The notes: generated from the sequence alone by a model not told the origin. A stretch of 64,000 nt of DNA from an uncultured Verrucomicrobiota bacterium (GCA_903828255.1 CAIKLQ010000501.1:9491-73490), one strand, 5' to 3'. Positions 1-21,382 are shown, numbered from the stretch's first letter. Made by a program: numbers and translations.

Positions 1-197
1 TCTTGCAGGAAGCCGCCAGCAAAGCGGAAGATGCGACGCCAGGCGCTTTTCGCGCGGCGCTGATGAAGGTGTTTCCCTACGACGGCGTGACCGGTCACAT
101 GGAGATTTCGGCGGATCGGGAACTGGCCGTTGACCTTGCGCTTTCTCGTTGGGTCAATGGTGAGATCCAGGTTATTCCCAAAGCGAAGGCCAATTGA
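1..197 (+). CDS. 3' end of a type-1 periplasmic/ABC substrate-binding protein (LivJ/LivK-like), partial
   Basis: Tail 'RAALMKVFPYDGVTGHMEISADRE' matches the GVTG.I.F motif at the C-terminus of branched-chain amino-acid-binding proteins; the 5' part lies outside the window. Confidence 0.6.
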   Translation, partial: LQEAASKAEDATPGAFRAALMKVFPYDGVTGHMEISADRELAVDLALSRWVNGEIQVIPKAKAN

Positions 198-238
198 CCG
201 AAGTTCCATTCCACGCTGGCCAGTGAATTTATCCGAAG

Positions 239-3200
239 ATGGAAAGCACCTACGAAAACCTCTCCTTTTGGCAGACATACGCCGAGCTTTACTGGCCCGA
301 CTTGGACGTTTCGTCTTCCGTTCCCGAAGCGGAATCGCTCAGACAATTTTCGACTGGCATCGCACGGGCATTGAAGAAAAGCCAGACAGATAAGCCGCTC
401 AAAATACTTCTCCTCGGTAGCGGTTTTGGCGGAGTCGAACTGCCGGTGCTCTATCACCTCAAGAAGGCACACAACCAGTCACTTTGCTGTGTTTTCATTG
501 ATCGGGCCAAGTCTCCGCTGCAGCTTGCCGGACACATTCTTAACAAAGGATTCGATGGCCTGCCACGCGATGCAAATCAGCTCGCGGGTAGGATTGGCGA
601 ATTTAAGAAGGCTGCTCCTGACGCACAGGATTTTATCAACGACGCATCAAACTGGAAGGATGTTCCTGATCCACATCAAGAGATCAAATGTTTGACGCCA
701 CCGGGAGGAGATGCCTTCTATTTTTTCAGAGACGATTTGAACTGGGAGCCAAATACATTCCCTCAAACCCCGTCTGCTTGGCTAAAGCGGATGGATGATT
801 GGTTTGACCAACGTCAGCAATTCGATCTGATCTTCGCTGCTTTCTCCTTCTTCCATATTGATTGGTGGCGATGCGTCGCAATGGATGCCCTGTCTCGTCT
901 CAATCCCAACGGGCTGTTTCTCCATGCCAAGGTTGAAGGTGATGAGGGCCTATTTGAGGGGCGTATTGGGTGTTCTGGTTCAAAGAATAGCATTGCCAAA
1001 AGGGTATTTCTCGAAGGGTTCTTTTCCCATCCGGAAATCGTCGAAGAGTTTGCAAAATCACCGCGAGCCAACAGCGCGTCGCAACCTCTCGCGATTGAAT
1101 CGCTCTTGGCGAAACTCCAAGATTTCGGATTGTGTGAGACTTCCGACATGGTCGGCTCTGCTGGATACACTGTGCGCCCTCACGTTGGTCTCCACACCTA
1201 TCGGCGGCTACTGCACACAAGGGGTTTCAGCACTTTCAGGAACATTGCCAAGCAACTCGACGAAGGGCAGCCCGGCAAATATGACGCAATCTGTGAGGAA
1301 GTGCTTTCAAAAGCAGAGGGAGAGTCGAAGTTGGACGTTCTTCAAATACATTTCCATTGGACAATCTGCCAACTTCAGCATCCAACGCTGCTGCAAGTCT
1401 TCCCGTTGAAGCATCGCTTCCTAAGAGCACCGAAGCCACAGTATGAGCAATCGCATGCTGGCGTGCTCCATGATTCTTACGTTACAGCTTACGAGCTTTC
1501 CAACCCGCTGCGTCTTCACAAGCGGATAGACGATGAGATCCGGCTCGCGAAGACGCTTGGGCGACGTCTTAACGTGCAAGGTCTCTTGCACGATCAGTGC
1601 CTCGCATTCGAGTTGGGTCTTTGGCCGAAACAGGGGCGAACATCTTGGAGCTATGCGGGTAACGCCCTGCGCCACGATGCCCAGATTGTTGGTAGAACAT
1701 TGGAAGAAGTTGCGACGTATTTAGCGCTGTTGGATCGGCGTTCGGAAGTAATGCATCGCAATTTCAGCAACACCAAGGCTCTACTTGAAGCGATACTTCC
1801 AATCTTCAATAAGGCGCCGGTGCTCATTTACGATCTGGAGCAGGCGGATTATTCCTTGCGCCATACCACGCGGTTGGACTATGAGGAATTCCGATTCAAC
1901 ATCCCTCGCTTGGGACTCGCTGAGCAACAAGCGTGGCGAATAGAGCTCGCTCACATTCGGTCTTGGCTTCAAACAACCGTCTTTGCCCAGGCCAAGGACG
2001 AGTCGAGTGCGGAACCCGACGATCCTCCAGATGTTCTCACCTCGTCCAGACTTGCAGGTGATGCGGCGAATACCTGCGCTGGCGGAGCGCTCAAACGGTT
2101 GTTTGGTTTGATTGCAGATTCCCCAGAACGCTTGGAAAGCATCTGTTCACGACTGGCAGCATCGTTCTCCGCATCATCGGACTTACCAGAGCAAACCAAA
2201 CGACAAATTGTAGATGCACTGACTCCACCGATGGCTTTTACCCTCCGATGCTTAAAGCTGATGAGCGAAGCCAAGCAGATTGTGTTTTATCCTGCTCGTT
2301 ACGAACTGGAGCAAGGGGGATTCGGCAAGGACGTGATCATCTGCGTGTATTCCCGCTGTCTTTCGGAAAAGGAAGTCACGGCAGAATTTCACAAATTTGA
2401 CCAGTTCTTTGATGAGATCAAAATGCATCGCTTGGAGTTGAGCAGCCGATCCGGAGGGGTTGAGGAAACCATCCAAGCGTTTAGTCATGAGATCGCCCAT
2501 CAGACATCGCGGCTTTTCGGCACACGTTGGCAAGAACTAGGAAAGGTGTTTGATCTAAATAGGGATGAATCTACGGGTTCGCGGAAGGGAGTTAACGATT
2601 GGCCAAAAAGCGCGGGAAGTCTAACCGTAGCCCCCAAAGACGTAGCATGCGTCTCCAAGTGGTTGGTGTGCCCCACCCCCAATATTCTCCACTCTGCCAA
2701 GAGCTTGCTTTACTTGTGGAGCGGCTCCCCAAGCTGGGCTGCTGAATTGAATCTTAAAAAAGATGATGATGCGAAGACAATCGTGAAGAGAGTATGGGCT
2801 GTCGCCCTCGGAGCAGCGGTCGCCGTTGATATCAAGAATCGTCCAATGCCCAAGAGCGTCAAAGCCGCGCTCGATTATGATAATTTGCAGACCTGTAAAC
2901 TGATTGGCGCTTGCAGTAAACCCACGGTTACAATCCGTGGCGAGCCAAGCTTCTCATGGAAAGTTGCCGACCAAACGACGGCGAATTCGGAATTATTGTC
3001 AAAAGCACAATCCCTTTTTGTTCGTGCGTTTGTGGCAGCTTCCTTGAATACGATTGTTCACGCGGGCGCAATGCAATCCCCAGCGATAGAGGTCTGCGTT
3101 GTATGTTCAGAAACGGAGATGGTATATTCGCTCTCAAACTCATGCACTTCTGGCGATACCAAGAATTCACACGACGATGGAACGAAAGCCGTTCTATCGC

Positions 3201-3340
3201 TGTGTGTCCGGCAAATGGGGGGCGATGTTTCCAAAGTGAAGCATTTTTGCGATACGGATGGACGGTGGGTGACTGAGTTTTCCCTCCCGCGCATTGCTGT
3301 CTTGAGAGGGCAACCGGTCCAGTGGCTTTCGTCCCTTTGA
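239..3340 (+). CDS. Class I SAM-methyltransferase-like domain fused to a divergent histidine-kinase module (1033 aa)
   Basis: N-terminal 'LKILLLGSGFGG' (motif I) and 'FDLIFAAFSFFHI...LNPNGLFL'. C-terminal H-box-like 'QAFSHEIAHQ', N-box-like 'SLNTIVHAG', reduced G-box 'DDGTKAVL...QMGG' and terminal 'TEFSLP'. Confidence 0.6.
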   Translation: MESTYENLSFWQTYAELYWPDLDVSSSVPEAESLRQFSTGIARALKKSQTDKPLKILLLGSGFGGVELPVLYHLKKAHNQSLCCVFIDRAKSPLQLAGHILNKGFDGLPRDANQLAGRIGEFKKAAPDAQDFINDASNWKDVPDPHQEIKCLTPPGGDAFYFFRDDLNWEPNTFPQTPSAWLKRMDDWFDQRQQFDLIFAAFSFFHIDWWRCVAMDALSRLNPNGLFLHAKVEGDEGLFEGRIGCSGSKNSIAKRVFLEGFFSHPEIVEEFAKSPRANSASQPLAIESLLAKLQDFGLCETSDMVGSAGYTVRPHVGLHTYRRLLHTRGFSTFRNIAKQLDEGQPGKYDAICEEVLSKAEGESKLDVLQIHFHWTICQLQHPTLLQVFPLKHRFLRAPKPQYEQSHAGVLHDSYVTAYELSNPLRLHKRIDDEIRLAKTLGRRLNVQGLLHDQCLAFELGLWPKQGRTSWSYAGNALRHDAQIVGRTLEEVATYLALLDRRSEVMHRNFSNTKALLEAILPIFNKAPVLIYDLEQADYSLRHTTRLDYEEFRFNIPRLGLAEQQAWRIELAHIRSWLQTTVFAQAKDESSAEPDDPPDVLTSSRLAGDAANTCAGGALKRLFGLIADSPERLESICSRLAASFSASSDLPEQTKRQIVDALTPPMAFTLRCLKLMSEAKQIVFYPARYELEQGGFGKDVIICVYSRCLSEKEVTAEFHKFDQFFDEIKMHRLELSSRSGGVEETIQAFSHEIAHQTSRLFGTRWQELGKVFDLNRDESTGSRKGVNDWPKSAGSLTVAPKDVACVSKWLVCPTPNILHSAKSLLYLWSGSPSWAAELNLKKDDDAKTIVKRVWAVALGAAVAVDIKNRPMPKSVKAALDYDNLQTCKLIGACSKPTVTIRGEPSFSWKVADQTTANSELLSKAQSLFVRAFVAASLNTIVHAGAMQSPAIEVCVVCSETEMVYSLSNSCTSGDTKNSHDDGTKAVLSLCVRQMGGDVSKVKHFCDTDGRWVTEFSLPRIAVLRGQPVQWLSSL

Positions 3341-3349
3341 TGCAAGATT

Positions 3350-4669
3350 ATGAAAACATGGATAATTATTGAGGACGATTCGACGATTTTGGAGATGCTC
3401 ATTCGACGGGTGCGCTTATCCACCACCCATTGTCCAACTGACGATTCTGTTGTGGCCCTTTTCGCCAACAGCGATCCAACGAGTGCGTCCCATTTTCAGG
3501 AAGAGGAACTCAGCACTTTCATGTCGCAACAGAACATCAGGTTCATCCCCTGTGAAACCAGCACGAAGATTGAGGATGAGTTGAAGCTGTTGCAGGACAA
3601 ACCGGCACTAATTCTGGCCGATATGAATCTTGAGGGTATCCACAAGCACAATCACTACAAGACTCCGGGCAATGCGTTGCGCAATCTACTTTCAGGATGG
3701 GTGCAGGGCGAAAAGGACTGCGTCTTTTGCCTCTATAGCAGCCACTCAGCAAAGGACGAGGTGGTTAAGATTGTCGGGGGGAAAAGTATTCGCGCTAAGG
3801 CAATTGGTTGGTTTGATGTCTCGGAAGACAACGCGAAGCAGGCCGATAGCCTTATCAATGAAGCCGGCAGGCACTGGCAAAGGTGTCACGAGAACCCTCT
3901 GAAAGGGGTGTGGGATGACATTCGCACGAAGGATTGGTTTGCAAACAAAGATGGTCCTGTTCCCCACGAATGGACCGACATCCAGTTGACTGAATATCGT
4001 TCCGCAATCGAATCTGTGTTCGGCTTGTCATTTCCCGACGAATGGTATGCGCACGCTCAACTTAATGGATTCCACGAATCGCTTAAGGCAATGTGCGGTG
4101 CGTATTTTTATGGTCGCATACATACTCCAAGCACGGCAATACCTGCCCGATACACATTCCGTTTAGGTAGCATTGTGCTCATTGCCGCATTGGCACACGC
4201 AAATTGTAAAAGTAAGGAACACCAGCCGCAGGAAACGCCTTTCCGAAGCTTTACTTGGAACACGCTCTGCTCCAGTGCCAAATTCACCCTTTCAACATCC
4301 CCCGAGCGCGTTCGCCTACAAGGGCAAGCGATCTATGAATTCTTTATACAGATCTTCAAAGTGGACAAGCACAATGGTCAGTTAAGGGGCGTCGAACTTC
4401 TTCCGAACGGCAGAACTGTGAAGCTCGTGTTGTCCTGGGACACAAAGAACCTCCACACCGTGATTTATGAGGAATTGCAGACCAAGTCTGGAGAATTGCA
4501 TCGCGATGGCCATCCGATCGAGCCAGGATCGTGGATTCATTACTGTGATGGAACCCCTGGGACGGCTCGCTCTGCGTATGCGAAAGCACATATTGCGATG
4601 GCCTTTGAGCCGGGAAAACTTTTCGGTTGCGCTGACAATGTTCTTATCTCATCCCTTTGCGAATTATGA
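3350..4669 (+). CDS. Receiver-domain protein with unknown C-terminal domain (439 aa)
   Basis: 'WIIIEDD', 'LILADMNL' (phosphoacceptor Asp) and 'CLYSS'; the conserved Lys is not evident. Confidence 0.6.
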   Translation: MKTWIIIEDDSTILEMLIRRVRLSTTHCPTDDSVVALFANSDPTSASHFQEEELSTFMSQQNIRFIPCETSTKIEDELKLLQDKPALILADMNLEGIHKHNHYKTPGNALRNLLSGWVQGEKDCVFCLYSSHSAKDEVVKIVGGKSIRAKAIGWFDVSEDNAKQADSLINEAGRHWQRCHENPLKGVWDDIRTKDWFANKDGPVPHEWTDIQLTEYRSAIESVFGLSFPDEWYAHAQLNGFHESLKAMCGAYFYGRIHTPSTAIPARYTFRLGSIVLIAALAHANCKSKEHQPQETPFRSFTWNTLCSSAKFTLSTSPERVRLQGQAIYEFFIQIFKVDKHNGQLRGVELLPNGRTVKLVLSWDTKNLHTVIYEELQTKSGELHRDGHPIEPGSWIHYCDGTPGTARSAYAKAHIAMAFEPGKLFGCADNVLISSLCEL

Positions 4670-5430
4670 ATAAAATGGAAAATGCGATCGCCCTTGTGGT
4701 GCTGCTCGACCCCGAGGACGATCGAGCAATAAGCTGGGCTCGCCTCTTAACAAACGTGTTTTCCGACGTCTTCGTGGTGCATGGAGTTAATTCGTGGGGC
4801 AGACTTGATGTTGTTCGAGATGAAATCAAAACACTGTTAAATAGCGAGCGACCGTCACCTTTAGAAGTGTCCGCGGTGTTTACTCACCGCAACGACGACA
4901 AGAAGGACGTCGCGAGAATCCTGGATACAATTCAAGGAGAGTATTACCGCTTTGTTTTTAGTGGACCGGGAGTTCCAGAGGGCGATTCAGCAGGCATACC
5001 AATTGTGCGGAATACCGATCCGTGGTCTCTTTCAGACCAAGATGCAAAGGAAATACATGAATTCGTTATCGGCATCCGCCAAGACCTGCCATCCTGTTGC
5101 AAGCGGGAATCGTTTTCCTTTCTCGTCGCCCTCGCCATTTTGTGTCAAGGCTACCTAGCTGCAAGAGGTAGATTCGATCTTCTCGGCGTGAATGCCGAAA
5201 AGGCAGCCGAGTATCGGACTCCCCCTGCTGAAGCGGTTGCGAGAGTTCTCGACCGAAAGTGGTGGCTGGCCCCATTTCAAGGATTCGATCTCACAAGCGA
5301 AATCCGCAAGGAATGTAACGAGCAAAGCCTTCCTTCAGAAATCGCACGGCTTGTTGACAACTTTGGCAATGGTGATGACCAATGTGTTAGCGCAGCCTTG
5401 CGGAAAATTGATGTGATTCTGAATCAATAG
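4666..5430 (+). CDS. Hypothetical protein, possibly a degenerate receiver fold
   Basis: ATG at 4666 overlaps the upstream TGA (ATGA). Alternating strand/helix pattern 'VVLLDPEDD...VFTHRND...FVFSG', with His where the phospho-Asp would be. Confidence 0.45.
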   Translation: MNKMENAIALVVLLDPEDDRAISWARLLTNVFSDVFVVHGVNSWGRLDVVRDEIKTLLNSERPSPLEVSAVFTHRNDDKKDVARILDTIQGEYYRFVFSGPGVPEGDSAGIPIVRNTDPWSLSDQDAKEIHEFVIGIRQDLPSCCKRESFSFLVALAILCQGYLAARGRFDLLGVNAEKAAEYRTPPAEAVARVLDRKWWLAPFQGFDLTSEIRKECNEQSLPSEIARLVDNFGNGDDQCVSAALRKIDVILNQ

Positions 5431-5438
5431 GCGACCGC

Positions 5439-8255
5439 ATGAATACCCCTGCCTCCAAAGCTTTGACTCAGGTGCTAGAGCTATTAAGCGCAGGTGTTGA
5501 AGCAACTTCCGCCTTCATCATTTCCGCAAGCGCTTCTTCACAACTACTGTGGAATCTCCCAAAGGCGGCAAATGCGCAGCGCATAATCGTCATTTGGGAT
5601 GCCTCCTTAAACTCGGCAAATGCCGCAACTACCAATCTCTCTGCGCATCTGAACCCTCTGACGGCGTCGCTCTGCGCACTAAAGGAACAAAGTGATTTAA
5701 GAATTGCAATTCTCGACCCTAAGCCCAAGCAGCATCGAGTCGAGGGCGGGTTATATCGGACTGTGGAGTCCATCCGCCAAGACAGGATGCCGCAGCTCTA
5801 TTTGGCTTCGTTGCTGGATTTCGGAGGCTATCTTCTAGATCAGTTTTGCGGGAACAATGAAAGAGTTTTAAGGAAGGCAGACGAAAAGCGGACGGAAATC
5901 CTCGAAGTGCTACAGTGTCAGATTAGAGATGCCCTGATACGAGAGAGTGGTGAAAACGACCGGCACGCAATTCAGAACATCATTGGTCCGATGGTGCTAC
6001 TTGGACGCGGTTACCTCGCCAGCAAGGGCGTCGCAGAACACGCCTTGCTTCGGGTTTTTGAGGCGACTGGTTTGTTGCCAAAGGGGCTAGCTGACGGATC
6101 CCAATCAATCGGCAAAATTAATGAGGAATCGTGGGGTAAGCAACCGTTACGCCTTTTGCTGGTTGATGACCAAGCCGATTGCGGCTGGACAGATTGGGTG
6201 CGCGCGAATCTGCCGGCCTCCAATCCGGGCCTTGTCAGCTTGGAGTCGGTTGACGTGCTTGCTTCGCCAGATGCCCTGCTCGACCGTCTGCTGGTCGAAT
6301 GGAGGCTAATGGGTGACTCGAAGGACAGGAGACTTGCGCTTCAGTTGGCAGCCAGCGGCAAAGAAACATCGAGCCGCCAGCCTGTTCTTCTGCTGGATTT
6401 GCGTCTCCACTCCATGCGGAGCGCGGAAAGCGAAGCCGACTTCATCAAGAAGCTTCTCCCGCTTTGCGAACGTTTCAAATCCGACGGAAAGGCAGCGCAA
6501 TTCGCCTGGCCCGGCTTTTCAGCGCAGGAAATTCAGAGCGTTCAGCAGTGGTGTGAGCATCCCAAACGAGAAACGCCCGATCATTTGGTCGCGTTGAGCT
6601 TGCTTCCACGGCTGATTGCGCTGATGGACATGTCCCTGCCCATCATCATTTTCTCGTCCACCGGGCAGCGTTCGCTGATTGAGAAGTTCAAGCCTTACGG
6701 GAATATCATTACGGACTTTGAGAAGCCGAGGTTTTTCGGACGCGACGCAAGGAACGTCATTGCTGAAACACATGCGAAGTTTGCAGCCAGCGTCGAACGG
6801 GCGGTTAAATTGGCTGTTACACGACGTTTATCCCAGCAGATGACGCTCAATGTCGGCATGGCTGACGCGGCGCTGGTAGGCTGTGCATTAAAGAATGCGG
6901 GAAGCAATTCTGAATGGAGTGCCGTCTTGTATATTGACGAATCAGGTTCTGCGCGTGAATTGACGTTGGGAGGAATACTGCTGCTCCTCCCCCGGGGGAT
7001 CAGTGAAAGTGAGGTTGACAAAGCGCTCCGAGCGACTCTTGAGCAGCCGAGCAGTCAGGGCGCTCCGGCTGTCGGCCCTTCTCGCTCCAAGGGATGGTGT
7101 CATAAGCCAGGCAACCTCGAATTGCTTCTTCAGCAGATAAAAAGGCGTTTTCCAACAGTCCACATTTGCTTCGTCAGCTTAAGTGCGGGAGCAGATCGAA
7201 TCTTCGATGATTTTGCGAAACACGATGAGCTTCATGATGAGCGGGTGGCGGACAATCTGTGGCGCGAGATTTTTCGCCGGTTGGTGGAACTGTCAGTCTA
7301 TGCGATCCCAAGTTGTCTTGTCGAAAATGGCGCTTGCTTGAAATCCTTTTCCATTCGCGCTCCCACGCGGGTGTTGCCCGCTTCCAGCATTGGCAAAGAT
7401 TCTTGGAAACAGCGCGCGCTATTCAATCGGTGGGGAATTGATGTCACTTTGGTTGGACCAGACGCGAGTTTATGGGAGGCCGTTTCTGCAATCGAAGCAT
7501 TGCCCCCTCCCAAGCAGTTCAAAGCCAGTCGTTGGAGTTGGCTGGTTAAGTTGCTTCACCAGCTCAAGCCGAGGAAGCAACCCGATTTGATGATTCGATA
7601 TTTCAGCTTTGACAGTCCGCGCCCGGTGGTTGAGGAGGTCATGCGTCTGTATCGTAATATCGAGAGCCCCCCCTTGGCCGAGATTGTAAGGGGATTCTTG
7701 CTGAACTGCCACGGACGGCCAGCCGCCGCACACATACCGATTCTACATTTTGCGGTTGATGGATTCTTGTATCAGCAGAATTTCAGGAACGTGAACCCTT
7801 TGATACGCGTCACTGGATACTATGGCAGAAACCTGGAATTGTTACTTGAATCCAATCGCTGCACGGCGAACGGGGATCGTATCGGCGCGATTCTGAGCGC
7901 ATCGGCAGCGGAGTTTCACTCTGGCGATCAAATACAGGCGTTATTGTGGAAACGCATAGGGATGACGCTCAACGCGATTGATGGCCCAGACTTTTTGCGT
8001 TTCTCATACCTTGCGAACGCTGAAACGGCGATGAGTGATGACCAGGCGGTCTCGTGGCAAGGCAAAGTCATCAAAAAGGCGGGCTCGGTTGGCGGCGGGA
8101 CATCTACGGGTTATTGGGGGGTAATCGAAGACCAGCGAGGAAAGCAGGTTTTCGCACCAACATGCCCTGCTGATGTTGGCGATGCTGTCACGTTCAGGCC
8201 GATGCGCGACAAATGCCCCGGGGAGATAATCGCCGCCGACGTGAAGAAGATTTGA
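5439..8255 (+). CDS. REC + RNase H-fold (DUF3800-like) + C-terminal cold-shock/OB-like domain protein (938 aa)
   Basis: REC motifs 'LLLVDDQ', 'LLLDLRL', 'IIIFSS', 'FEKP'; 'VLYIDESG...LTLGGILL'; C-terminal 'GKV...GYWGVIED..GKQVF...GDAVTF...G..IAADVKKI'. Confidence 0.6.
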   Translation: MNTPASKALTQVLELLSAGVEATSAFIISASASSQLLWNLPKAANAQRIIVIWDASLNSANAATTNLSAHLNPLTASLCALKEQSDLRIAILDPKPKQHRVEGGLYRTVESIRQDRMPQLYLASLLDFGGYLLDQFCGNNERVLRKADEKRTEILEVLQCQIRDALIRESGENDRHAIQNIIGPMVLLGRGYLASKGVAEHALLRVFEATGLLPKGLADGSQSIGKINEESWGKQPLRLLLVDDQADCGWTDWVRANLPASNPGLVSLESVDVLASPDALLDRLLVEWRLMGDSKDRRLALQLAASGKETSSRQPVLLLDLRLHSMRSAESEADFIKKLLPLCERFKSDGKAAQFAWPGFSAQEIQSVQQWCEHPKRETPDHLVALSLLPRLIALMDMSLPIIIFSSTGQRSLIEKFKPYGNIITDFEKPRFFGRDARNVIAETHAKFAASVERAVKLAVTRRLSQQMTLNVGMADAALVGCALKNAGSNSEWSAVLYIDESGSARELTLGGILLLLPRGISESEVDKALRATLEQPSSQGAPAVGPSRSKGWCHKPGNLELLLQQIKRRFPTVHICFVSLSAGADRIFDDFAKHDELHDERVADNLWREIFRRLVELSVYAIPSCLVENGACLKSFSIRAPTRVLPASSIGKDSWKQRALFNRWGIDVTLVGPDASLWEAVSAIEALPPPKQFKASRWSWLVKLLHQLKPRKQPDLMIRYFSFDSPRPVVEEVMRLYRNIESPPLAEIVRGFLLNCHGRPAAAHIPILHFAVDGFLYQQNFRNVNPLIRVTGYYGRNLELLLESNRCTANGDRIGAILSASAAEFHSGDQIQALLWKRIGMTLNAIDGPDFLRFSYLANAETAMSDDQAVSWQGKVIKKAGSVGGGTSTGYWGVIEDQRGKQVFAPTCPADVGDAVTFRPMRDKCPGEIIAADVKKI

Positions 8256-8259
8256 TCCC

Positions 8260-8784
8260 ATGCTCAACGAATGGCAGGAACGACGCAGCGAGTTCAATCA
8301 CGACTGGTTGAAGAACCAGTTCTTGAACCGCCTGAACGCTTTTCTTGAGCGGTTGCGAAGCGATAATCCCGACGCGGAAAAATTGTCAAGATTCGTCCGG
8401 GAGCATCTGCCGGAATGGAGTGCGCATGAATCGGAAGCGCGCTGGCTGATTGACTCTGTGGAGAGTGAACTGTCTCCCAAGCGTTTTTTTGACCAGCCGC
8501 CATTGAACCGTTGCGACTCCAAAACCAAGGAATGGTTGCCAACGGTTGTTCATGAACTTTGGTTGAATCGGTATCCGGTTCACGAGTTGCGCGAAAAGGC
8601 CGCCGGGAACCTGGCACAAGTGAACGTGCAATATGCGAAGCTCTCGTCAGCCTTGAAAAATTCGACTTCGGTAAGGGGCGGCGGTTTGGTAGCATTGGAG
8701 CACGAGTTTTCCAAGTTGAGCCGCTTGTGCGTCGAACTGCATGACACATTCAGCGCGTTCGACGTGAAAATCAGAAGATTATGA
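8260..8784 (+). CDS. Small helical protein with an H-box-like motif (candidate stand-alone phosphotransfer protein)
   Basis: 'SEFNHDWLKNQFL' resembles the HisKA H-box (HDxxN); predominantly amphipathic helices and no ATPase domain. Confidence 0.45.
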   Translation: MLNEWQERRSEFNHDWLKNQFLNRLNAFLERLRSDNPDAEKLSRFVREHLPEWSAHESEARWLIDSVESELSPKRFFDQPPLNRCDSKTKEWLPTVVHELWLNRYPVHELREKAAGNLAQVNVQYAKLSSALKNSTSVRGGGLVALEHEFSKLSRLCVELHDTFSAFDVKIRRL

Positions 8785-10589
8785 GTGCGTTGCCCAGAGT
8801 GCTGGTCATTGATGACGATCTTGGACGCCCCTTTAAGCGGTCAAACGGGGACGCTCCGGTATTGGAGAATCCAGATCGTGAGGCGTTTTGCATTCGCGCC
8901 GGCCTCCAGGACGTGACGGGCGACATTCCAGCCGAGAAGATCAATGAACCCGTGGCCGAGGCGGTATTCCTTTCCGGTCTCCGGATTGATGACGGCAAAG
9001 CGGAACAAGCCGTGACGGAAACGCTGGCCGAAATTCGTCGTGGGTGGGAGAAATCGCCGCGATGGGCGCTGATACTACTCGACCTCCATTTCAAGACCGG
9101 CCCCCTCAAATCGGGCGGTATTCCAGCCGGGCGTCCAGAGGACCGCGATCCGCAACGGTATTTTGGGCTGACGTTGCTTGAAGCCATTTCCAAGGAAGCA
9201 CAGTTGCAAGGACTGCCGGTCGTAATTCTCTCCGCGATGGAGCGGGAACGAATTGAGGAGCGATTCTCCAAGGCTGCCAGTGACTTCGTAGATAAGAGCA
9301 AAATCAACCGGGACAAGCTAGGCGAACTGCTGCTTGAACACGGCCTTTTGGCTGATGATCGCATCATCGGCGTCTCTGTGCCGATGTTAACCTGTCTTCG
9401 CGATGCCAGAAGTCGGGCGCGACGTGGTAGCGACAACATCCTCCTCTTGGGAGAAAGCGGATCGGGCAAGGAATTGGTCGCGAATTACATCCACCGCCAA
9501 TCACCAAACGCTTCCGGTCCATACATAACAGTCTTCGTTTCGGCGATACCCGACTCGTTGATTGAAGACGAGCTTTTCGGGCATGAGAAAGGGGCGTTTA
9601 CGGACGGAAAGGCGGCGCGTTTCGGTGCCGCCAAGCTCGCAAACGGAGGAACCCTTTTCCTCGATGAATTTGCGGACATTTCGCCAGCGGTTCAAACGAA
9701 GTTATTGAGACTTTTGGACAAGAACACTCGCGAGGTCAGAGCCATCGGGAGCGGCAAAGGGGAGAAGATCAAGTTGCAGGTTGTCATGGCCACCAACCGG
9801 ATTGAATTGCTGAATGGCGATGATTTTCGAGCCGACCTTCTAGCGCGGGTTAAAGTAAACGAACCCATTTGCGTCCCCCCGCTGCGCGAGCGGAAGGAGG
9901 ATATTCGCCCGCTGGCGCTACACTTCGTCCAAAAATTCGAGACGGAGTTTAAGGCGCAAAAACGCAAGATTTCAGATTCGGCCTGGTCTGCGCTTATGGA
10001 CCACGATTGGCCAGACAATGTTCGCGGACTTGAGCGGGTCATTGAGCAGGCGGTTTACAAAGGAAAGGGACTCCGTGCCCTAATGCCAGAGCATTTGAGC
10101 ATTACCCCGAGGGTTTCGCTCCCGGTCGTCTCGGGGCGGCGAAACAGAGCAACAAAGGAGGAGAATACGCCGCCATCCACGGGGGCCAGTCCGACCGCTG
10201 AGGCTCAGCAGAAGTCGCCGCCAAGACTGAAGGACGTAATCGCATTGCTTGAAGCGTGTGAGGTGGATGCAAACGGCACGGATGAATGGGCTGGCAAGTT
10301 GGATACATTGCAGGAGTCGTATGGCCTGTTGCTTGCCAAACTCGTGAAAGCGGCCCTGTTGAAGGAGCGCAATTTCAAAGGCGAAATCCAGCATACGCCG
10401 GCGATGAGACTTCTCGCAGGGCGACGGTTGGCGGAAAAGGGTGAAGCATCCATTGCTTACAGCGCCATCAAGAGCCTGTTAAGTCATCACCCCCCCGCAT
10501 TGGCAGAAATACTTTCGGACCCCATTTTGAAGCAGATTTACGAAACTGCGTGCGAAAAGCGGTCTGCCAAAAAGCCCAAGGTTTCGTGA
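8781..10589 (+). CDS. Sigma-54 enhancer-binding protein (REC + AAA+, NtrC-like)
   Basis: REC 'VLVIDDD/LILLDLHF/VVILSA/FVDK'; Walker A 'GESGSGKE'; 'ELFGHEKGAFTDG'; Walker B 'LFLDE'; 'FRADL', 'PPLRERKEDI', 'WPDNVRGL'. Confidence 0.92.
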   Translation: MSALPRVLVIDDDLGRPFKRSNGDAPVLENPDREAFCIRAGLQDVTGDIPAEKINEPVAEAVFLSGLRIDDGKAEQAVTETLAEIRRGWEKSPRWALILLDLHFKTGPLKSGGIPAGRPEDRDPQRYFGLTLLEAISKEAQLQGLPVVILSAMERERIEERFSKAASDFVDKSKINRDKLGELLLEHGLLADDRIIGVSVPMLTCLRDARSRARRGSDNILLLGESGSGKELVANYIHRQSPNASGPYITVFVSAIPDSLIEDELFGHEKGAFTDGKAARFGAAKLANGGTLFLDEFADISPAVQTKLLRLLDKNTREVRAIGSGKGEKIKLQVVMATNRIELLNGDDFRADLLARVKVNEPICVPPLRERKEDIRPLALHFVQKFETEFKAQKRKISDSAWSALMDHDWPDNVRGLERVIEQAVYKGKGLRALMPEHLSITPRVSLPVVSGRRNRATKEENTPPSTGASPTAEAQQKSPPRLKDVIALLEACEVDANGTDEWAGKLDTLQESYGLLLAKLVKAALLKERNFKGEIQHTPAMRLLAGRRLAEKGEASIAYSAIKSLLSHHPPALAEILSDPILKQIYETACEKRSAKKPKVS

Positions 10590-10602
10590 CTCCAGTTTCA
10601 TA

Positions 10603-10621
10603 TTGGCAGCGTGTCTGCCAA
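10603..10621 (+). promoter_or_regulatory. Candidate sigma-54 -24/-12 promoter within a perfect inverted repeat
   Basis: TTGGCAG-CGTGT-CTGCCAA: GG(10605-6)-N10-GC(10617-8), 22 nt upstream of the ATG at 10641. Confidence 0.4.
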
Positions 10622-10640
10622 CCGGGTTGAATGCATTTCC

Positions 10641-13355
10641 ATGAAAGCGTGTCGCGTTGAGATTGCACGCGCTTCAACAAGCGCCGAAGAGCCAGAGTGC
10701 ATTACTTTGGCGTTGCAGGCTTTTTTCGGTCTTTTCACTCATGACAGCAGGATCGGGGAGTTTCCGTCGAACCTCATCCAGAAGGATGCAGAGCAAAAGC
10801 GGCTGATAGTTGTTCCTTCCACGCATGAATCCACACTGAATGCAATGATGGAGGAATTGCTGGTCCGTGCCTATGGTGAGCCCCCAAAAGCCATGCAAAT
10901 TGGGGCTGGGCACACCCGGTTGATCCTTGTCCGTCTTCATAATGCATCGCCTCGATTTGAAAACCTCGCCCAAATTTACAGGAAGATAGGAATCGCCGAA
11001 GTGGTGGAATTGGAGCAATTGCCTCTCATCTTCAAATTGGTCCACCTTGCGGGCGACAGCCAGGGCGTGCCGGAAAGCAAAGACATTACCCGTCCCTCAG
11101 AACTCCAAGAGGTGATTGAGACATCTGCCTTTCCCTCTGGAGCCGCTGAGATTATGGAGAGTCTTTTTCGCGACCCAAGTCTTTTGCACTCGACTTCAAG
11201 ATTCTTGAGGAAGTCGTCTGTAACTGATGGAGGTTCGCCACAACCGAAAGATGTTTGGCCTCATCAGGGGGAAGCGCCGGTGAGATTGCTCTTCGGTGCG
11301 TTTACGGCAGGTGATGTGGGAAAGAACGAGTTCCTCCAAGCATTGCAGACTATTCGAATGGGATTTGACGAGGCTAACAGTCAGAAATGGAAACTGCAGC
11401 TCGGTGAAGTTTCAGATTGGGCGGAAAATGTCCTCACGCGCAAAACGGCATACCAACAGAACCCGCACCAGCTTGATGCTCTATCGACCTATTTATCTGG
11501 CCGCCGCATTTTGCTTATCGAAGATCAACTTCTGGAGCAGCACTGGAACGTAGCACTGCCGGTGATCTTTGGACTGAAAGGAATCCTTCCGAGGAGAGGG
11601 AAACTCAACGGCCTTGGAGGACCGATACTTTATCACGCTGAGACAGTGGATGACGCTCTGAGACGCTATGGTGAGATGATTGGCTCCTTCGACATTATCC
11701 TGTTAGACTTGTTCTCAAGCGAAGCTCGTCTCACTCGGACACGGCAATTGAAAGGCGCATTACTATCCACCATTGGGGCATCTGTTAACCGACTGGTGAC
11801 TGAGTTGGAGAAAGTGCGCGACAAAAGGGCGGTCTGTCCAAATCCTTTTCCGCAACTCGTTGCGTTTTCGTATGAGGGAGGAGGAACTACGGTAAGGACG
11901 ATTCTTCAGGACTTCGGAGCGGCCGACTATTTTATCAAGGGTGCAGAGGGGGAACCGCACAAGGCCGAGTTCTATTCATCCCTGCGCAATTGTGTGATAA
12001 ACGCACTGAAGCGCATGTGCATCCACGTAACCGGGCACGCAAATGTTTGCCACAAGGATAGCCGATTCAATCTATGGTTGAGACAATTCAAACCGCAACA
12101 TCGCCCGCTGGTGCTCAATCTCATGAAGCACTTTCGATATTACAGTGCGCAAAGCATCGTAAAGCTATTCAATCGTTATCTTCGTGCTGAGTATCCCATA
12201 GACACCCGAGGCAAAACCTTGAGGTTGACGATCGCAAATTTGGGAATAAAGCGGGTGTCTTCCCATAAAGTATGGATTTCCTATCTAGGTCGGTCCACCA
12301 AATCGGGGCCGGCTGCGTTGTCGCTGCTATCTAAGCTGGATTGGCTGAGACCCATGTCTGTCGAGGCGGCAAAACTGATAGAAGCCGTGAAAGCGTTACC
12401 CGGGTTGACCAAGGGAAAACAAATTGGCGATTATATGCCCCAATTCAAGAGCTACGAGGAATTGTGCACGGGCTTCTCTGGAAAACTACTCGGAGGCAAG
12501 GTGACGGAGTTGATTTTGGTAGATGATGTGATCGGATCTGGTGGCCAGATTGATTCCTACCTCCGAAAATGGCTCAATCGGGATTTGCTTAAAGCGCACT
12601 GGAGGGAATTCTTGATGCGATATCTGGCCCGCAACCCGAAAAAGAAGATGGACGCCACAACCAAAGCCAAACTGTGGGAGGCATTTCAAAAAGACTGGCA
12701 AAGAGTGATAGAAAAGTTGAAGGGAGTGGCGGGGGGCAAGCGCGTTCGGATTAGCGCTGTTTTTGCCGTTGGTCCCGAGAATGCCCAACTTCGACGACGG
12801 ATTCGTGCAACGATTAACAGGTCGACGGGTTCAATGACGGGTAGCATCTCGGTGCCCATGTGCCTCAATCTTGTTCGTTCGGTGGGGGACGGCAGGAAAC
12901 TTGACGACTGTCATCCAACGGAATGGGATGTGTATCCCGGACACACAAAAATGCCCGGTGCTTGTGGGGGAGAGGTTGTGCTGAACATCCATGTTATCGA
13001 GGTCAGTGCAAACTATACCCAGGCATGTGGAAAGAGCGGTATTAGTAGCCCGACCATAAAAAGGATGTTGTGGGATTATGTTGGAATAACAAATCCAAGG
13101 GCGAAGGAATTCCGCTGTAATTTTGAACCATTCGGATGGAAGGACGGAGGAGGGCTGATTGCGACCTATGCGAACACTCCGGGCAACACTTTGCCAATCG
13201 TATGGGGTGACCAAGGAACTAGCCCTTGGATTCCCTTGTGGCCAAGGTTCTTTAATCCGTGGGATGATGGCGGAGCAGAATCTCTCAAGTGCTGCTGTGG
13301 CAGGCGAGGCCGGCAACGCATCTGCGAAAGTGCTGCTAAAAAGTCTGTGCAATGA
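10641..13355 (+). CDS. REC domain fused to a PRTase-CE-like phosphoribosyltransferase effector (ORF track start 10611 GTG; ATG 10641 preferred)
   Basis: REC 'ILLIEDQ/IILLDLF/LVAFS/YFIKG'. PRTase-CE-type motifs 'WLRQF', 'TKSG', PRPP loop 'LVDDVIGSGGQ' and C-terminal 'PFGW...NTPGNTLPIVW...WIPLWPR'. Confidence 0.75.
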   Translation: MKACRVEIARASTSAEEPECITLALQAFFGLFTHDSRIGEFPSNLIQKDAEQKRLIVVPSTHESTLNAMMEELLVRAYGEPPKAMQIGAGHTRLILVRLHNASPRFENLAQIYRKIGIAEVVELEQLPLIFKLVHLAGDSQGVPESKDITRPSELQEVIETSAFPSGAAEIMESLFRDPSLLHSTSRFLRKSSVTDGGSPQPKDVWPHQGEAPVRLLFGAFTAGDVGKNEFLQALQTIRMGFDEANSQKWKLQLGEVSDWAENVLTRKTAYQQNPHQLDALSTYLSGRRILLIEDQLLEQHWNVALPVIFGLKGILPRRGKLNGLGGPILYHAETVDDALRRYGEMIGSFDIILLDLFSSEARLTRTRQLKGALLSTIGASVNRLVTELEKVRDKRAVCPNPFPQLVAFSYEGGGTTVRTILQDFGAADYFIKGAEGEPHKAEFYSSLRNCVINALKRMCIHVTGHANVCHKDSRFNLWLRQFKPQHRPLVLNLMKHFRYYSAQSIVKLFNRYLRAEYPIDTRGKTLRLTIANLGIKRVSSHKVWISYLGRSTKSGPAALSLLSKLDWLRPMSVEAAKLIEAVKALPGLTKGKQIGDYMPQFKSYEELCTGFSGKLLGGKVTELILVDDVIGSGGQIDSYLRKWLNRDLLKAHWREFLMRYLARNPKKKMDATTKAKLWEAFQKDWQRVIEKLKGVAGGKRVRISAVFAVGPENAQLRRRIRATINRSTGSMTGSISVPMCLNLVRSVGDGRKLDDCHPTEWDVYPGHTKMPGACGGEVVLNIHVIEVSANYTQACGKSGISSPTIKRMLWDYVGITNPRAKEFRCNFEPFGWKDGGGLIATYANTPGNTLPIVWGDQGTSPWIPLWPRFFNPWDDGGAESLKCCCGRRGRQRICESAAKKSVQ

Positions 13356-13360
13356 AGGCG

Positions 13361-16011: not shown

Positions 16012-16024
16012 GCTTTCCTTTACA

Positions 16025-16159: not shown

Positions 16160-17815
16160 CTACTTGTCGAGTTCTTCAAGCAGCGTCACGCTATTAGCGA
16201 ACGCGCTGCCGAGGGTCTTGTAGCGTTCAGCCAGGCCACGGCGGTCTTCCGTGTTGATGCGATAATCGCGGTGCGCCGCCTGCAAATGCTCCGCCGTCAT
16301 TGCGTCCACGGTGTCGTCGAAGAAGTTTTGCTTGGCGCGAGTCACCATTTCCTCAAGGTCCGCTCCACTGTAGAACTCGCTTTCCGCCGCAATTTTTGAA
16401 ATCACGGGACGGATTGCATCCTCCGCCATGACAGGTTTAGGCCGACGGCCGATCAAACCAAGGTGCATTTCCAAAATCTGTTGCCGGGCCTGCTGATTGG
16501 GATAAAGAAACGGGATGACGTAACTGAACCTCCCGGGACGCAGGAACGCGGGGTCAAGGTCGCCCGGCACATTGGTCGTGCCGACGATGATGGACTTGCG
16601 GTTGGCATCGCCGAGCCATTCCAGCATTTGAGCGAATACCCTGCTCGTCTCCTGTGAGGCGCTGTCGCCCTGGCCCGACTTCCTGCTGCCGAACCGATCA
16701 ATCTCGTCCACAAACACAATGGCAGGCGATGCCTGTTCTACCATGTGAATCGCATCTCTCACTCGCTGGCCGGACTCGCCGAGATATTTTGAAAACAGGT
16801 TCTCCGTCTTGAGGTTGATAAACGGTAGATTCGTTTCTCTGGCGAGGGCCTTGGCAAAAAGTGTCTTGCCTGTGCCCGGCGGGCCAAAAATGAGAATTCC
16901 GCGCGGTAGCGGAAGTGCGGCTCGCACAGCTCGTTCCCGCTGTTGAAGCGCCCGCACAAGATTGCGCTGAACCATCCGCTTGACGCCGTTGTAGCCACCC
17001 ACGTCGTCGAAGCCGACCGATGGGTCTTCGATTTCTAGTATGTCGGAACGGCGGATGAAGTCGGCTTTGAACTTCTTCACCGTTTCCAAATCAACCCCAT
17101 CGCGCCTGCCAGCCTTGGCGGCGCGATAGGCTTTGTAGATGACGACATCCGTCTGGTGAAGCGTGAGGCCGGCGGTGGCGAGAGTGAGCGCGTTCAGTTC
17201 CTGCTCCGCAAGGCGAACTCCTGATTTCCGCGCGAACGCGCAGATGATTTCCCTTCTTTCGGCATCGCTGGCCAGTTCGGGCCGGGCCAGAACGCTCATC
17301 CCCAATGTCACTTCATCCATCGCGAGCAAGGGGCGGGATGTCACCCAGCACACCACGGATTTCTTGGCGAGAATGTCGCCGTCCTGTGCCCAAGAGCGCA
17401 CCGCGTTCAAGGCGTCCAAGTTCTTGACCGAGTTGCCCTCCGGCTGATCGAGGCCGGATAGAATCAATGCGGTCTTCTCGCGCTTCAACTGGCTGTCCAT
17501 GAATTTGAGCGCGCCTTGCAGGTCTTTTAGTTCGTTTTCAAGGCCAGCGCCGTAGTTGGAATCCACCGGAGCAGTCACAGCGGCAAAGTTGTCACGCTTC
17601 GTTTCCCACTTCTCCAACCCTTTCCAAGGATGGAAACGATAGACATGCTGTCCGAAAAGGCTGACGAGGTATTTCTCCAATTGTCGATTACGGTGAAAGT
17701 CAACGGTCTGCGCGGTCACGACTGCAGAGGCGCTGCAAAGGACTTCCATCATGGCGTTCTCCAGCCAACGGATGTCGAATGTCGGGGTGTTGGATTCGGG
17801 TTGTGACAGTGCCAT
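16160..17815 (-). CDS. Ycf46-like AAA+ ATPase (inactive N-terminal AAA-like half plus active C-terminal AAA)
   Basis: 'FDDVGG', 'PRGILIFGPPGTGKT', 'VFVDEID', 'LDPAFLRPGRF', 'YSGADLE'; start ATG 17815 chosen from the promoter position. Confidence 0.85.
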   Translation of the reverse strand: MALSQPESNTPTFDIRWLENAMMEVLCSASAVVTAQTVDFHRNRQLEKYLVSLFGQHVYRFHPWKGLEKWETKRDNFAAVTAPVDSNYGAGLENELKDLQGALKFMDSQLKREKTALILSGLDQPEGNSVKNLDALNAVRSWAQDGDILAKKSVVCWVTSRPLLAMDEVTLGMSVLARPELASDAERREIICAFARKSGVRLAEQELNALTLATAGLTLHQTDVVIYKAYRAAKAGRRDGVDLETVKKFKADFIRRSDILEIEDPSVGFDDVGGYNGVKRMVQRNLVRALQQRERAVRAALPLPRGILIFGPPGTGKTLFAKALARETNLPFINLKTENLFSKYLGESGQRVRDAIHMVEQASPAIVFVDEIDRFGSRKSGQGDSASQETSRVFAQMLEWLGDANRKSIIVGTTNVPGDLDPAFLRPGRFSYVIPFLYPNQQARQQILEMHLGLIGRRPKPVMAEDAIRPVISKIAAESEFYSGADLEEMVTRAKQNFFDDTVDAMTAEHLQAAHRDYRINTEDRRGLAERYKTLGSAFANSVTLLEELDK

Positions 17816-17828
17816 ACAAAAGGAAGGG

Positions 17829-17845
17829 AGCGGCGGAAGTGCCAA
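17829..17845 (-). promoter_or_regulatory. Sigma-54-type promoter with variant -12
   Basis: TTGGCACTTCCGCCGCT; the -12 C is 15 nt from ATG 17815. Confidence 0.7.
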
Positions 17846-19607: not shown

Positions 19608-19654
19608 AGCGTTGATGTTGAGCAGGCAGTTTGCGCTGTCAATCGAATACCCGT

Positions 19655-21337: not shown

Positions 21338-21382
21338 ATTCGTTGGTCTTGGTTGTCGCGTTTTGGTTTCTGATTTTAAGAA

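Follow-up and report, generated by a model that had tools for sequence, protein, structure and literature searches.

The DNA studied here is a stretch of 64,000 nt of contig CAIKLQ010000501.1 (positions 9491-73490), from an uncultured Verrucomicrobiota bacterium (GCA_903828255.1). Between positions 239 and 13,355 of this stretch lie seven genes, g1 to g7, which a reading made from the sequence alone (the sequence-only reading) had described as a phosphorelay-like operon ending in probable toxic effectors. Our analysis shows that these genes belong to a real, importer-coupled, multi-output relay, a variant of two-component/phosphorelay signalling with receiver-gated enzymes which has not been previously characterised. 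As to its role, we favour a branched relay, fed by an importer, that would drive a stress programme directed at nucleic acids and nucleotides, a reading to which we give a probability of about 45% and which includes the proposed horizontal acquisition of the whole twelve-gene operon that g1 to g7 complete. The entire 64,000-nt stretch is called the window, and positions are given in its own numbering unless the contig (C501) or its upstream part L007 (C501:1-9800) is named.

According to the proposed mechanism, a Liv-type ATP-binding cassette (ABC) importer, its binding protein and a PrmA-like methyltransferase would deliver or process a small molecule, which g1 would sense in the cytoplasm by means of a domain resembling S-adenosylmethionine (SAM)-dependent methyltransferases. 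From the g1 core around His750, the signal would then travel by way of the g2 receiver and the histidine-protein pair g3/g5 (His14 of g5). Three receiver-gated outputs would respond: the RNase H-fold and cold-shock enzyme g4, the activator g6, perhaps together with a divergent rpoN, and g7, a PRTase-CE phosphoribosyltransferase (PRTase) that would bind phosphoribosyl pyrophosphate (PRPP). The likely outcome would be a stress or growth-arrest programme directed at nucleic acids and nucleotides. What we infer from these data comprises the ligand, the trigger, each phosphotransfer step with its place in the order, and the targets of the three outputs.

Organisation of the operon

The seven plus-strand open reading frames (ORFs) were recovered at exactly the coordinates of the sequence-only reading: g1 at 239-3340 (1033 aa), g2 at 3350-4669 (439 aa), g3 at 4657/4666-5430 (257/254 aa), g4 at 5439-8255 (938 aa), g5 at 8260-8784 (174 aa), g6 at 8781-10589 (602 aa) and g7 at 10611-13355 (914 aa). 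Their near-contiguity was borne out when the junctions were read directly in the sequence, with gaps of 9 nt between g1 and g2, 8 nt between g3 and g4 and 4 nt between g4 and g5, and with ATGA overlaps between g2 and g3 (4666-4669) and between g5 and g6 (8781-8784). The spacer between g6 and g7 measures 21 nt to GTG 10611 or 51 nt to ATG 10641, the latter being the start point in all three full-length relatives of g7. The GC content is 0.50-0.55 over the g1-g7 array and 0.57-0.60 immediately downstream. Scans for sigma-70 promoters and terminators over window positions 1-14000 gave results at chance level.

The genes thus do form a tight operon, as had been claimed, but not one that starts at 239, as five co-directional genes precede g1, mostly upstream of the window. 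The window opens inside the last of these, and the contig stretch L007 showed, all on the plus strand, two Liv-type permeases of the Pfam family BPD_transp_2 (L007 4200-5153 and 5150-6049), a double ABC_tran ATPase (L007 6046-7611; Pfam), a PrmA/MTS-like methyltransferase (L007 7604-8527; Pfam PrmA 6e-14, PADLOC mad2 3.8e-21) and a Peripla_BP_6 solute-binding protein (L007 8485/8524-9687; Pfam 4.5e-38) with a signal-peptide-like hydrophobic segment. The stop codon of the binding-protein gene, at L007 9687, corresponds to window position 197, so that its 3' end occupies window positions 1..197. These five genes are joined by ATGA or 8-nt overlaps, and 41 nt separate the binding-protein gene from g1, which is therefore the sixth gene of the importer operon. 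The whole unit comprises twelve co-directional genes (C501:4200-22845) that overlap or lie no more than 51 nt apart, preceded on its 5' side by a 363-nt spacer and a divergently oriented gene. No transmembrane-like segment was found in any of g1 to g7. Since the input side is soluble and the only envelope parts are the importer and the binding protein, we infer that an imported, possibly methylated, small molecule is the input of g1.

Three proposed receiver-gated outputs

Among the seven proteins, Pfam families (E <= 0.01) were obtained for only g6 and g7; g1 to g5 gave no Pfam family even at E <= 10 and nothing from NCBIfam or PADLOC. The proteins were compared by hhalign with a receiver (REC) profile built from 30 response regulators of the same genome and with a kinase-core profile built from 24 kinase cores of the same genome. 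Such profile tests and fold tests sustained most domain labels of the sequence-only reading, namely REC in g4, g6 and g7, the RNase H-like fold and the cold-shock domain in g4 and the methyltransferase fold in g1. The histidine kinase core of g1 received moderate support and the REC domain of g2 weak evidence, while the label REC-like for g3 found no significant support. The domains of unknown type (g3, g5, the N-terminal domains of g4 and g7, the C-terminal domain of g2 and the middle region of g1) were unrelated to each other by hhalign (all E >= 0.07).

The protein g4 (5439..8255, plus strand) combines four parts. Its N-terminal domain (residues 1-230), with the motif DRHAIxNIxGP, had escaped notice before. 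It is followed by a receiver (about 234-470) whose phosphorylation residues DD243/244, D320, S406/T408 and K429 form a quintet (DD, D, S/T, K) that is invariant in 40/40 sequences. Then come a domain (about 484-790) for which profile and fold tests support an RNase H-like fold, and, at 866-938, a cold-shock domain. The residues D500, E501, D605, H770 and D774 are conserved in at least 90% of the same 40 sequences. Relatives of g4 numbered 46, and the AlphaFold2 (AF2) model made on 40 sequences reached a predicted local distance difference test score (pLDDT) of 84.3 and a predicted template modelling score of 0.79. Foldseek matched it to cold-shock proteins at probability 1.0, confirming membership of that domain family. 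In a profile search of PDB sequences, the alignments of g1, g4 and g7 had no meaningful match.

The protein g6 (8781..10589, plus strand) consists of a receiver with two insertions (DD11/12, D101), an AAA+ domain of the sigma-54-interaction type and a family-specific C-terminal helical domain. Pfam identified Sigma54_activat (PF00158, 7.4e-43) and AAA_lid_14 (9e-18). The N-terminal family profile aligned with the REC profile over 111/111 columns (Prob 98.3%, E 1.4e-14); Pfam misses the receivers of both g6 and g7 because they carry insertions. The GAFTGA loop reads GAFTDG and thus retains F and T. The NCBIfam models nearest to g6 are regulators of nitrogen fixation, nitrogen assimilation, nitric oxide response and acetoacetate metabolism, all of them far below their equivalog cut-offs, and PADLOC recognised only the AAA+ part of its RtcR/PspF models.

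Also, the genome contains two rpoN genes. The copy in the window, a divergent second sigma-54 gene (19655..21442, minus strand; Pfam Sigma54_DBD 5.8e-25, Sigma54_CBD 1.5e-22), scores 91 bits with Sigma54_DBD vs 189 bits for the copy on contig C93. It lies 6 kb downstream of the end of g7 and about 9 kb from g6, and may be the sigma factor with which g6 works; by tblastn, 22 related loci had no rpoN match. A sigma-54-promoter-like sequence, TGGCAG-N5-CTGC (10604..10618, plus strand), which has two mismatches to TGGCAC-N5-TTGC, stands in the g6-g7 spacer and is a lead only. Three similar -24/-12-like sites, TGGCAT-N-CTCTCGC, were seen at 21514-21528 (minus), 25039-25053 (minus) and L007 8712-8726 (plus), one of them 72 nt upstream of the divergent rpoN; they may be due to chance.

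The third output, g7 (10641..13355, plus strand), carries a family-specific N-terminal domain of about 290 aa, a receiver and a PRTase-CE domain. With residues numbered from the ORF start at 10611, the receiver holds E304/D305, D366 and K443, and residues 292-462 matched the REC profile (Prob 94.7%, E 5.9e-8). Residues 489-882 belong to PRTase-CE (PF24390, 4.3e-24; 86.2 bits vs a cut-off of 27), with an insertion of about 170 aa. The PRPP loop, LVDDVIGSGGQ, is intact and is invariant in 4/4 sequences. The protein also matched PADLOC PRTase_III-A (7e-19) and, below the cut-off of that model, NCBIfam DS32_1_antiphage (7e-6). The nucleotide-depleting effector of the sequence-only reading is thus retained as a PRTase-CE with an intact PRPP loop, but nucleotide depletion is one of several possible activities of a PRPP-binding PRTase. 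The same reading had counted the PRTase in the system proper, and this did not hold. Relatives with the g7 architecture were limited to three among 5.8 billion proteins, plus one locus, L003, and the g7 alignment had no match in the metagenome contig collection, so that the PRTase is a rare add-on outside the conserved core.

A predicted sensor with a methyltransferase fold

The protein g1 (239..3340, plus strand) is predicted to be a cytoplasmic sensor made of a class I SAM-methyltransferase fold (residues 1 to about 390), a family-specific middle region and a C-terminal histidine-kinase-like core with the H-box residues His750/Glu751, an N-box-like helix and a degenerate ATP site. Its AF2 model was poor overall (pLDDT 51), moderately confident over residues 1-390 and poor over the rest. 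Foldseek nevertheless matched the N-terminal part to class I SAM methyltransferases (E 8e-5 to 1e-3, TMt up to 0.62) and, on the low-confidence model, g1 to the DesK kinase core (DesKC, 3gig_B) at E 9.6e-4. By hhalign, residues 700-1033 aligned with the kinase-core profile over 218 columns (Prob 58%, E 9.8e-5), with His750 on the phospho-His column and the N-box-like helix on the N box. In the motif FSHE, H750 and E751 are invariant in 8/8 family members. Relatives of g1 numbered seven among the 5.8 billion proteins.

We considered g1 as a canonical histidine kinase of the HisKA/HATPase_c type and rejected it: the H-box is present, the ATP-binding G1 (DxGxG) and G2 boxes are not, and Pfam detected no HATPase_c in g1 even at E <= 10. 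The label of methyltransferase-kinase is therefore supported as an assignment of fold, based on sequence profiles and a structural model, and kinase activity is uncertain. The atypical sensor of the presumed phosphorylation-gated cascade stood, with phosphorylation itself as a putative step, as g1 has neither the G1 Asp nor the G2/ATP-lid motifs.

Candidate relay proteins

The protein g2 (3350..4669, plus strand) contains a probable receiver (residues 1 to about 175, with EDD 8-10 and Asp91) and a C-terminal domain of about 260 aa without known family. By eye, proteins in the g2 position of five other loci (L004, L005, L006, L045 and L046) share strand motifs 'xDD' and 'LLD'. The small, fast-evolving protein g3 (4666..5430, plus strand) has a conserved helix, ALAILCQGYL, and, following a hydrophobic strand, a His that is mostly conserved; jackhmmer found relatives in L003, L005, L006, L045 and L049. 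A structure search of the ESM Atlas with a g3 model of pLDDT 0.53 provided sub-threshold REC-like leads only.

The protein g5 (8260..8784, plus strand) is small and helical, with an invariant His14 in the motif R..FNHDWLKN, which makes it a candidate histidine phosphotransfer (HPt) protein. His14 and Pro73 are invariant in 133/133 aligned family members, and an exhaustive HMMER profile search of 1.84 billion representatives gave a family of 937 clusters (E <= 1e-3). Among the 150 best g5 matches, three (P0065, P0102, P0177) appeared by motif to be g3-g5 fusions, and one was thus confirmed, the N-terminal half of P0102 matching the g3 family with Prob 96.9% and E 1.6e-10. Another protein, P0152, has g5 fused to an unrelated N-terminal domain of about 300 aa without family; by eye this N-terminus looked like a PRTase, an identification that was rejected since neither Pfam nor a comparison with the g7 family gave a match. 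A complex prediction for the g6 receiver with g5 (median 0.44, one control 0.25) weighs neither way.

As far as residues go, the alternation of His and Asp proteins would fit a branched His-Asp-His-Asp relay, the receivers of g4, g6 and g7 keeping their phosphorylation residues and g2 probably also.

Conservation across loci

Synteny is conserved, and the order of the core genes is found again in other phyla. When 185,579 species genomes were scanned with the g4 alignment, 18 loci came to light, in Syntrophus, Desulfobulbaceae, Gammaproteobacteria, Pyrinomonadaceae, Verrucomicrobiia, Pirellulaceae, Bryobacterales, Lentisphaera, Rhizobiaceae and others; the g1 alignment had no match in this collection. 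A g6-like receiver-AAA+ gene lies directly upstream of g4 on the same strand in 13 of the 18, one more locus being cut at g4. Where the contig was long enough upstream, g5 lies directly upstream of g6 in 7/10 loci (L003, L039, L040, L045, L047, L049, L053), and g3 was detected in 5 loci. The recurrent order is a transporter, one or more SAM-dependent or other small-molecule enzymes, a large divergent sensor, a receiver-like protein of about 450-550 aa, g3, g5, g6 and g4, from which the window differs in that g4 has moved ahead of g5. In L003, a metagenome-assembled genome (MAG) of Desulfobacteraceae, the order is a methyltransferase, a 529-aa protein and then g3-like, g5-like, g6-like and g7-like genes. 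The cassette appears accessory, as g4 was not found in 40 relatives (1 from the genus, 23 from the family and 16 from the order of the source bacterium).

These data make it very improbable that the operon is a chance juxtaposition or an artefact of ORF calling. Such a view could invoke the five of seven proteins that have no Pfam family, but it has to face long, translationally coupled ORFs, homologues of g1, g3, g4, g5, g6 and g7 elsewhere, a high-confidence AF2 model of g4 and a conserved gene order.

In the metagenome loci L004, L005 and L006, a g1 relative again follows an ABC importer and a Peripla_BP_6 protein, with the ABC ATPase of L004 fused to a PrmA-like methyltransferase. Downstream of the g1 relative, all three encode a protein of about 440-500 aa, and L005 and L006 then a g3-like one; the 244-aa ORF in the g3 position of L004, which is cut by the contig end, had no detectable g3 match. 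Between L006 and the window the permeases are 53-70% identical, whereas the g1 homologue is only 25-28% identical, so the sensor evolves much faster than the transporter.

A transporter was found in 11 loci including the window (Liv-type, NMT1-type or SBP_bac_5-type ABC, Xan_ur_permease, or SSF), and a SAM methyltransferase or radical-SAM gene in most loci. Two loci without the g5-g6 pair, L048 and L051, had no transporter among the genes scanned, and the other ten loci end before that point. An importer and a SAM-dependent enzyme as recurrent partners suggest that the input is a small molecule, an unusual situation for an immune sensor acting inside the cell. The partners around g4 vary by locus and many of them handle nucleotides: PRTase-CE in the window and L003, CYTH in L048, SLOG in L040, a nucleobase permease in L045 and, as described below, a 1299-aa TCAD9 protein in L042 and BtpA-Maf in L038, L039 and L041.

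Such partners can be understood in another manner, as signs of a regulator of metabolite uptake or processing, for instance for a nucleobase- or amino-acid-derived compound. The sensor g1 would then detect the substrate or its methylated product, g6 would activate catabolic or salvage genes, g7 would be a salvage or biosynthetic PRTase and g4 a regulator at the RNA level, without any role in conflict. The five transporter types in 11 loci speak for it, as do neighbours such as class I methyltransferases, radical-SAM and B12-radical-SAM enzymes, SDR, 2-hydroxyacid dehydrogenase, flavin reductase, GHMP kinase, BtpA-Maf and ketopantoate-reductase-like enzymes. Also, the NCBIfam models nearest to g6 are named for metabolic regulators, although all score far below their cut-offs, and the PRPP loop of g7 is as intact as in metabolic PRTases. 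However, g7 falls in the conflict-associated PRTase-CE family and not in a housekeeping PRTase family, the most conserved output is the receiver-gated RNase H-fold and cold-shock protein, and no characterised regulator model reached its equivalog cut-off. The extreme divergence of the sensor against 53-70% permease identity in L006 would also be unusual for a metabolic sensor. We regard a purely metabolic role as possible but unlikely.

Several associations around g4 were observed besides. In L042 (5022-8919), a 1299-aa protein encoded directly after g6-g4, in the place held by g7 in the window, combines TCAD9 (1e-33), an APH kinase-like stretch and Glycos_transf_3, the fold of TrpD-type phosphoribosyltransferases and nucleoside phosphorylases. 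A conserved trio follows g4 in L038 (4835-10489), L039 (7447-13067) and L041 (12796-18608). Its members are a small protein of 166-203 aa, a large one of about 1150 aa and BtpA, either fused to Maf or next to it. Neither the small nor the large protein has a Pfam family in L038 or L039, and in L041 the large one shows only a short Fer4 match. In the Pyrinomonadaceae MAG that carries L045, a gene convergent to the cassette (12048-15170, minus strand) encodes a 1040-aa single-chain protein with Rpb1 domain 2 and Rpb2 domain 6/7, resembling a two-barrel polymerase.

Weighing the phosphorelay

Several observations weigh against the stress relay that we favour. On the sensor side, the probability of the kinase-core match of g1 was 58% and AF2 had low confidence in that region. 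In the ATP site, N, S or Q stands where the G1 Asp is expected, and the glycine motif of the G2/ATP lid is absent. Among the relay proteins, g2 as a single sequence matched the REC profile weakly by hhalign (E 0.022, with Asp91 on the acceptor column), and its structure rows from the ESM Atlas were mostly response regulators, all sub-threshold. With hhalign, g3 gave no receiver signal (E 0.85), and g5 had no detectable similarity to HPt proteins or to the dimerisation and histidine phosphotransfer (DHp) domain of kinases (E 0.65 against a profile of kinase DHp and catalytic domains), nor did it have a Pfam match. In the g6 family, the GAFTGA loop is canonical in 1 of 9 relatives and degenerate in 5/9, Pfam detected no HTH_8 in g6, and sigma-54 promoter motifs, counted with two mismatches like the one in the g6-g7 spacer, were not enriched in the window (69 found vs 81 expected), nor were such motifs in the upstream stretch. 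For distant loci, jackhmmer found no link between the sensor-side proteins and their alignment was uninformative. These proteins being too divergent to align, the claim of a same system in distant loci rests on g3, g4, g5 and g6.

The degenerate loop in 5/9 relatives implies that a sigma-54 output is not family-wide. The transcriptional output advanced by the sequence-only reading therefore keeps the Sigma54_activat domain of g6 as its basis, but does not extend to the whole family.

Some of these points would be expected if no phosphate were transferred at all. In such a scheme, g1 would be a pseudokinase scaffold, the receivers would act as kinase-independent switches for a ligand or nucleotide, and His14 of g5 would be catalytic or serve in binding. 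A g1 without G1 Asp and G2/ATP lid, a g5 without HPt or DHp similarity and the nucleotide-related enzymes that recur around the cassette are consistent with it. Against it stands the receiver quintet of g4, invariant in 40/40 sequences and kept in g6 and g7, together with the invariance of His750/Glu751 in g1 and of His14 in g5, as expected of phosphotransfer sites. We consider a phosphate-free relay rather unlikely.

Genomic neighbourhood and a possible role in defence

Downstream of the operon, two long ORFs (592 and 463 aa; 13361-16179, minus strand) overlap by about 350 nt, are convergent to g7 and lie upstream of an AAA ATPase gene; they have no Pfam or PADLOC family, and one predicted start is probably wrong. 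The AAA ATPase (16160..17845, minus strand) is IetA-like (Pfam AAA 4e-34; PADLOC IetA 1.5e-31). Similar genes lie within 10 kb of the cassette in the window, in L045 (18921-20480), L054 (9515-11299) and L055 (12980-14542), with weaker tblastn matches in L006 and L046. As they recur near the cassette elsewhere, this gene is possibly linked to it. A vWA_2 protein is encoded directly upstream of it in L045 and L055, and the genes scanned included no S8 protease partner. A gene at 18033-19607 (minus strand), lying between those for the AAA ATPase and the second sigma-54, encodes a 524-aa WG_beta_rep repeat protein (2.6e-38).

Two TrwB/HerA-like ATPases (22110-24761, minus strand; 25951-28713, plus strand) match PADLOC mad8. 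A related ATPase in L043 (1377-3944), with 38% identity over 447 aa to that at 22110-24761, stands directly upstream of a g4 relative, after a radical-SAM gene, and the window itself has a radical-SAM/Fer4_12 gene at 30708-31487. Membership of the MADS system was considered and rejected: the upstream methyltransferase matches mad2 (3.8e-21) and these two distant ATPases match mad8, and the other mad components are absent from the operon.

The downstream half of the window is a dense defence island (34444-63530). It encodes a DruE-like helicase with an MZB domain (34444-39660), a DpdE-like SNF2 helicase (39591-42479; PADLOC 5.7e-249), a DrmMI/Eco57I-type methyltransferase (42919-47604), a HATPase_c_3 protein (47601-49586), a Sacsin/TmtA-like protein of 2499 aa (53344-60843) and DrmD (60849-63530; 1e-244). 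Besides the window, defence neighbours were unambiguous in 1/12 related loci, among 91 flanking proteins. This locus, L051 (538-7286, minus strand, and 18452-19855, plus strand), from a Bryobacteraceae MAG, has a g4-family gene between type III-D CRISPR genes (Cas7, Cas5, Cas10d, Csx1) and cas1, with a 643-aa gene without known family upstream of it.

This context could suit an anti-phage, abortive-infection role of the Detocs type, in which a kinase-like sensor would detect infection and phosphorylate receiver-effectors, that is a nuclease and a PRTase draining PRPP or nucleotides, while a receiver or histidine protein would buffer the leak. In Detocs, the receiver-effector DtcC and the small protein DtcB offer parallels to the effectors and to the small relay proteins, respectively (bioRxiv 10.1101/2023.01.24.525353). 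Further support comes from the match of g7 to retron III-A PRTase models and its weak, below-cut-off match to an NCBIfam anti-phage PRTase, from the island downstream with the HerA/mad8-like genes, the type III-D cas genes around the g4 relative of L051 and the TCAD9 of L042, and from a rare, patchy distribution with fast-evolving sensors and no occurrence in the 40 relatives. On the other side, g1 to g5 have no PADLOC match at E <= 1 and clear defence genes occur in L051 alone of 12 related loci. Importers and small-molecule enzymes, for which known intracellular phage sensors have no need, are the constant partners, and most loci lack the PRTase branch. Also, the conserved partner of g4 is a sigma-54-type activator, which suggests a transcriptional rather than a suicidal response. 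An anti-phage role is therefore, in our opinion, unlikely, to the same extent as the metabolic one. The immune or programmed-dormancy cascade of the sequence-only reading met no contradiction from domains, synteny or a characterised regulator; its link with defence is weak, at 1/12 related loci.

A further, improbable possibility joins import and defence. An imported molecule derived from a nucleobase or metabolite, for example from damaged or infected kin, would be methylated and would fire the branched relay as a danger signal, leading to pre-emptive dormancy or immunity of the population. A sigma-54 regulon (g6 with the divergent rpoN), the RNase H-fold and cold-shock nuclease and the PRPP-consuming PRTase would then be engaged simultaneously. 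If this were true, the g3-g5-g6-g4 cassette would represent an unrecognised signalling-immune class, one that relies on an imported input instead of sensing within the cell.

Under the stress relay that we favour, and under its alternatives, the locus is of interest for two-component signalling. Five of the seven proteins and the whole cassette belong to no described family, yet g5 has about 900 clusters in public data, and the gene order recurs across Desulfobacterota, Acidobacteriota, Verrucomicrobiota, Planctomycetota and Proteobacteria. The system would add an importer-wired cytoplasmic sensor with a methyltransferase fold, a new relay protein with an invariant His, and receiver-gated RNase H-fold and PRTase enzymes. 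If the outputs are toxic, the Detocs principle would be extended to multi-output, importer-fed systems; if they are metabolic, a new way of regulating uptake pathways would be at hand. The residues pinpointed for point mutants are H750 in g1, H14 in g5, D320 and D500/E501 in g4, D101 in g6, and D366 and D638/D639 in g7.

Comparison with known systems

No named system corresponds to the operon: PADLOC and NCBIfam contain no match to it, which for PADLOC had been expected. The literature searched on PRTase-CE, receiver-PRTase proteins, sigma-54 in conflict, anti-phage receivers with sigma-54 and TCAD, taken without its supplementary effector-variant lists, gave no description of the cassette.

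With the NtrC family, g6 shares a receiver with an acceptor Asp, the Sigma54_activat AAA+ domain with its lid, the F and T of the GAFTGA loop and a sigma-54 gene nearby. It differs by two large insertions in the receiver, a C-terminal domain of its own in place of HTH_8, equivalog scores far below the cut-offs and a loop that is degenerate in 5/9 relatives; also, its partner sensor is not an NtrB-type kinase. The alternation of histidine proteins (His750 of g1, His14 of g5) with Asp proteins (g2, g4, g6, g7), branching at the last step, recalls multistep phosphorelays, from which the locus departs through g5, without detectable HPt or Spo0B similarity, and g3, which has no counterpart in classical relays.

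PRTase-CE is listed with type III-A1 retrons (PMC13712802). In agreement, g7 matches PRTase-CE and PRTase_III-A and keeps the PRPP-binding loop, but its PRTase has an insertion of about 170 aa and is fused to a receiver and a 290-aa N-terminal domain. A type III-A retron was rejected, as no reverse transcriptase occurs among the 12 operon proteins or the flanking proteins scanned, a protein search that did not include msr/msd RNA.

In the Lsr system, autoinducer-2 is imported by an ABC system, phosphorylated and then sensed in the cytoplasm. The likeness would be one of logic only, by analogy, in that a binding protein and an ABC importer are encoded with a cytoplasmic modifying enzyme and a cytoplasmic sensor; here the modifier is a methyltransferase and the sensor is kinase-like, not a repressor.

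The closest system in logic is Detocs, of which the operon is not a member. Membership was rejected on the ground that PADLOC gave 0 families for g1 to g5 at E <= 1 and only PRTase_III-A for g7, and that Pfam found no purine nucleoside phosphorylase (PNP) domain; PADLOC v2.0.0, we assume, holds the Detocs models. Detocs consists of a kinase, DtcA, a receiver-only buffer, DtcB, and a receiver-PNP effector, DtcC (bioRxiv 10.1101/2023.01.24.525353). Both systems have one kinase-type sensor, receivers fused to nucleotide-acting enzymes instead of DNA-binding domains, small relay or buffer parts, modular and swappable effectors, and a patchy distribution. The present system differs in that it carries PRTase-CE in place of PNP, three outputs including a sigma-54-type activator, a sensor with a methyltransferase fold and a degenerate ATP site, and an operon shared with an ABC importer, a binding protein and a methyltransferase.

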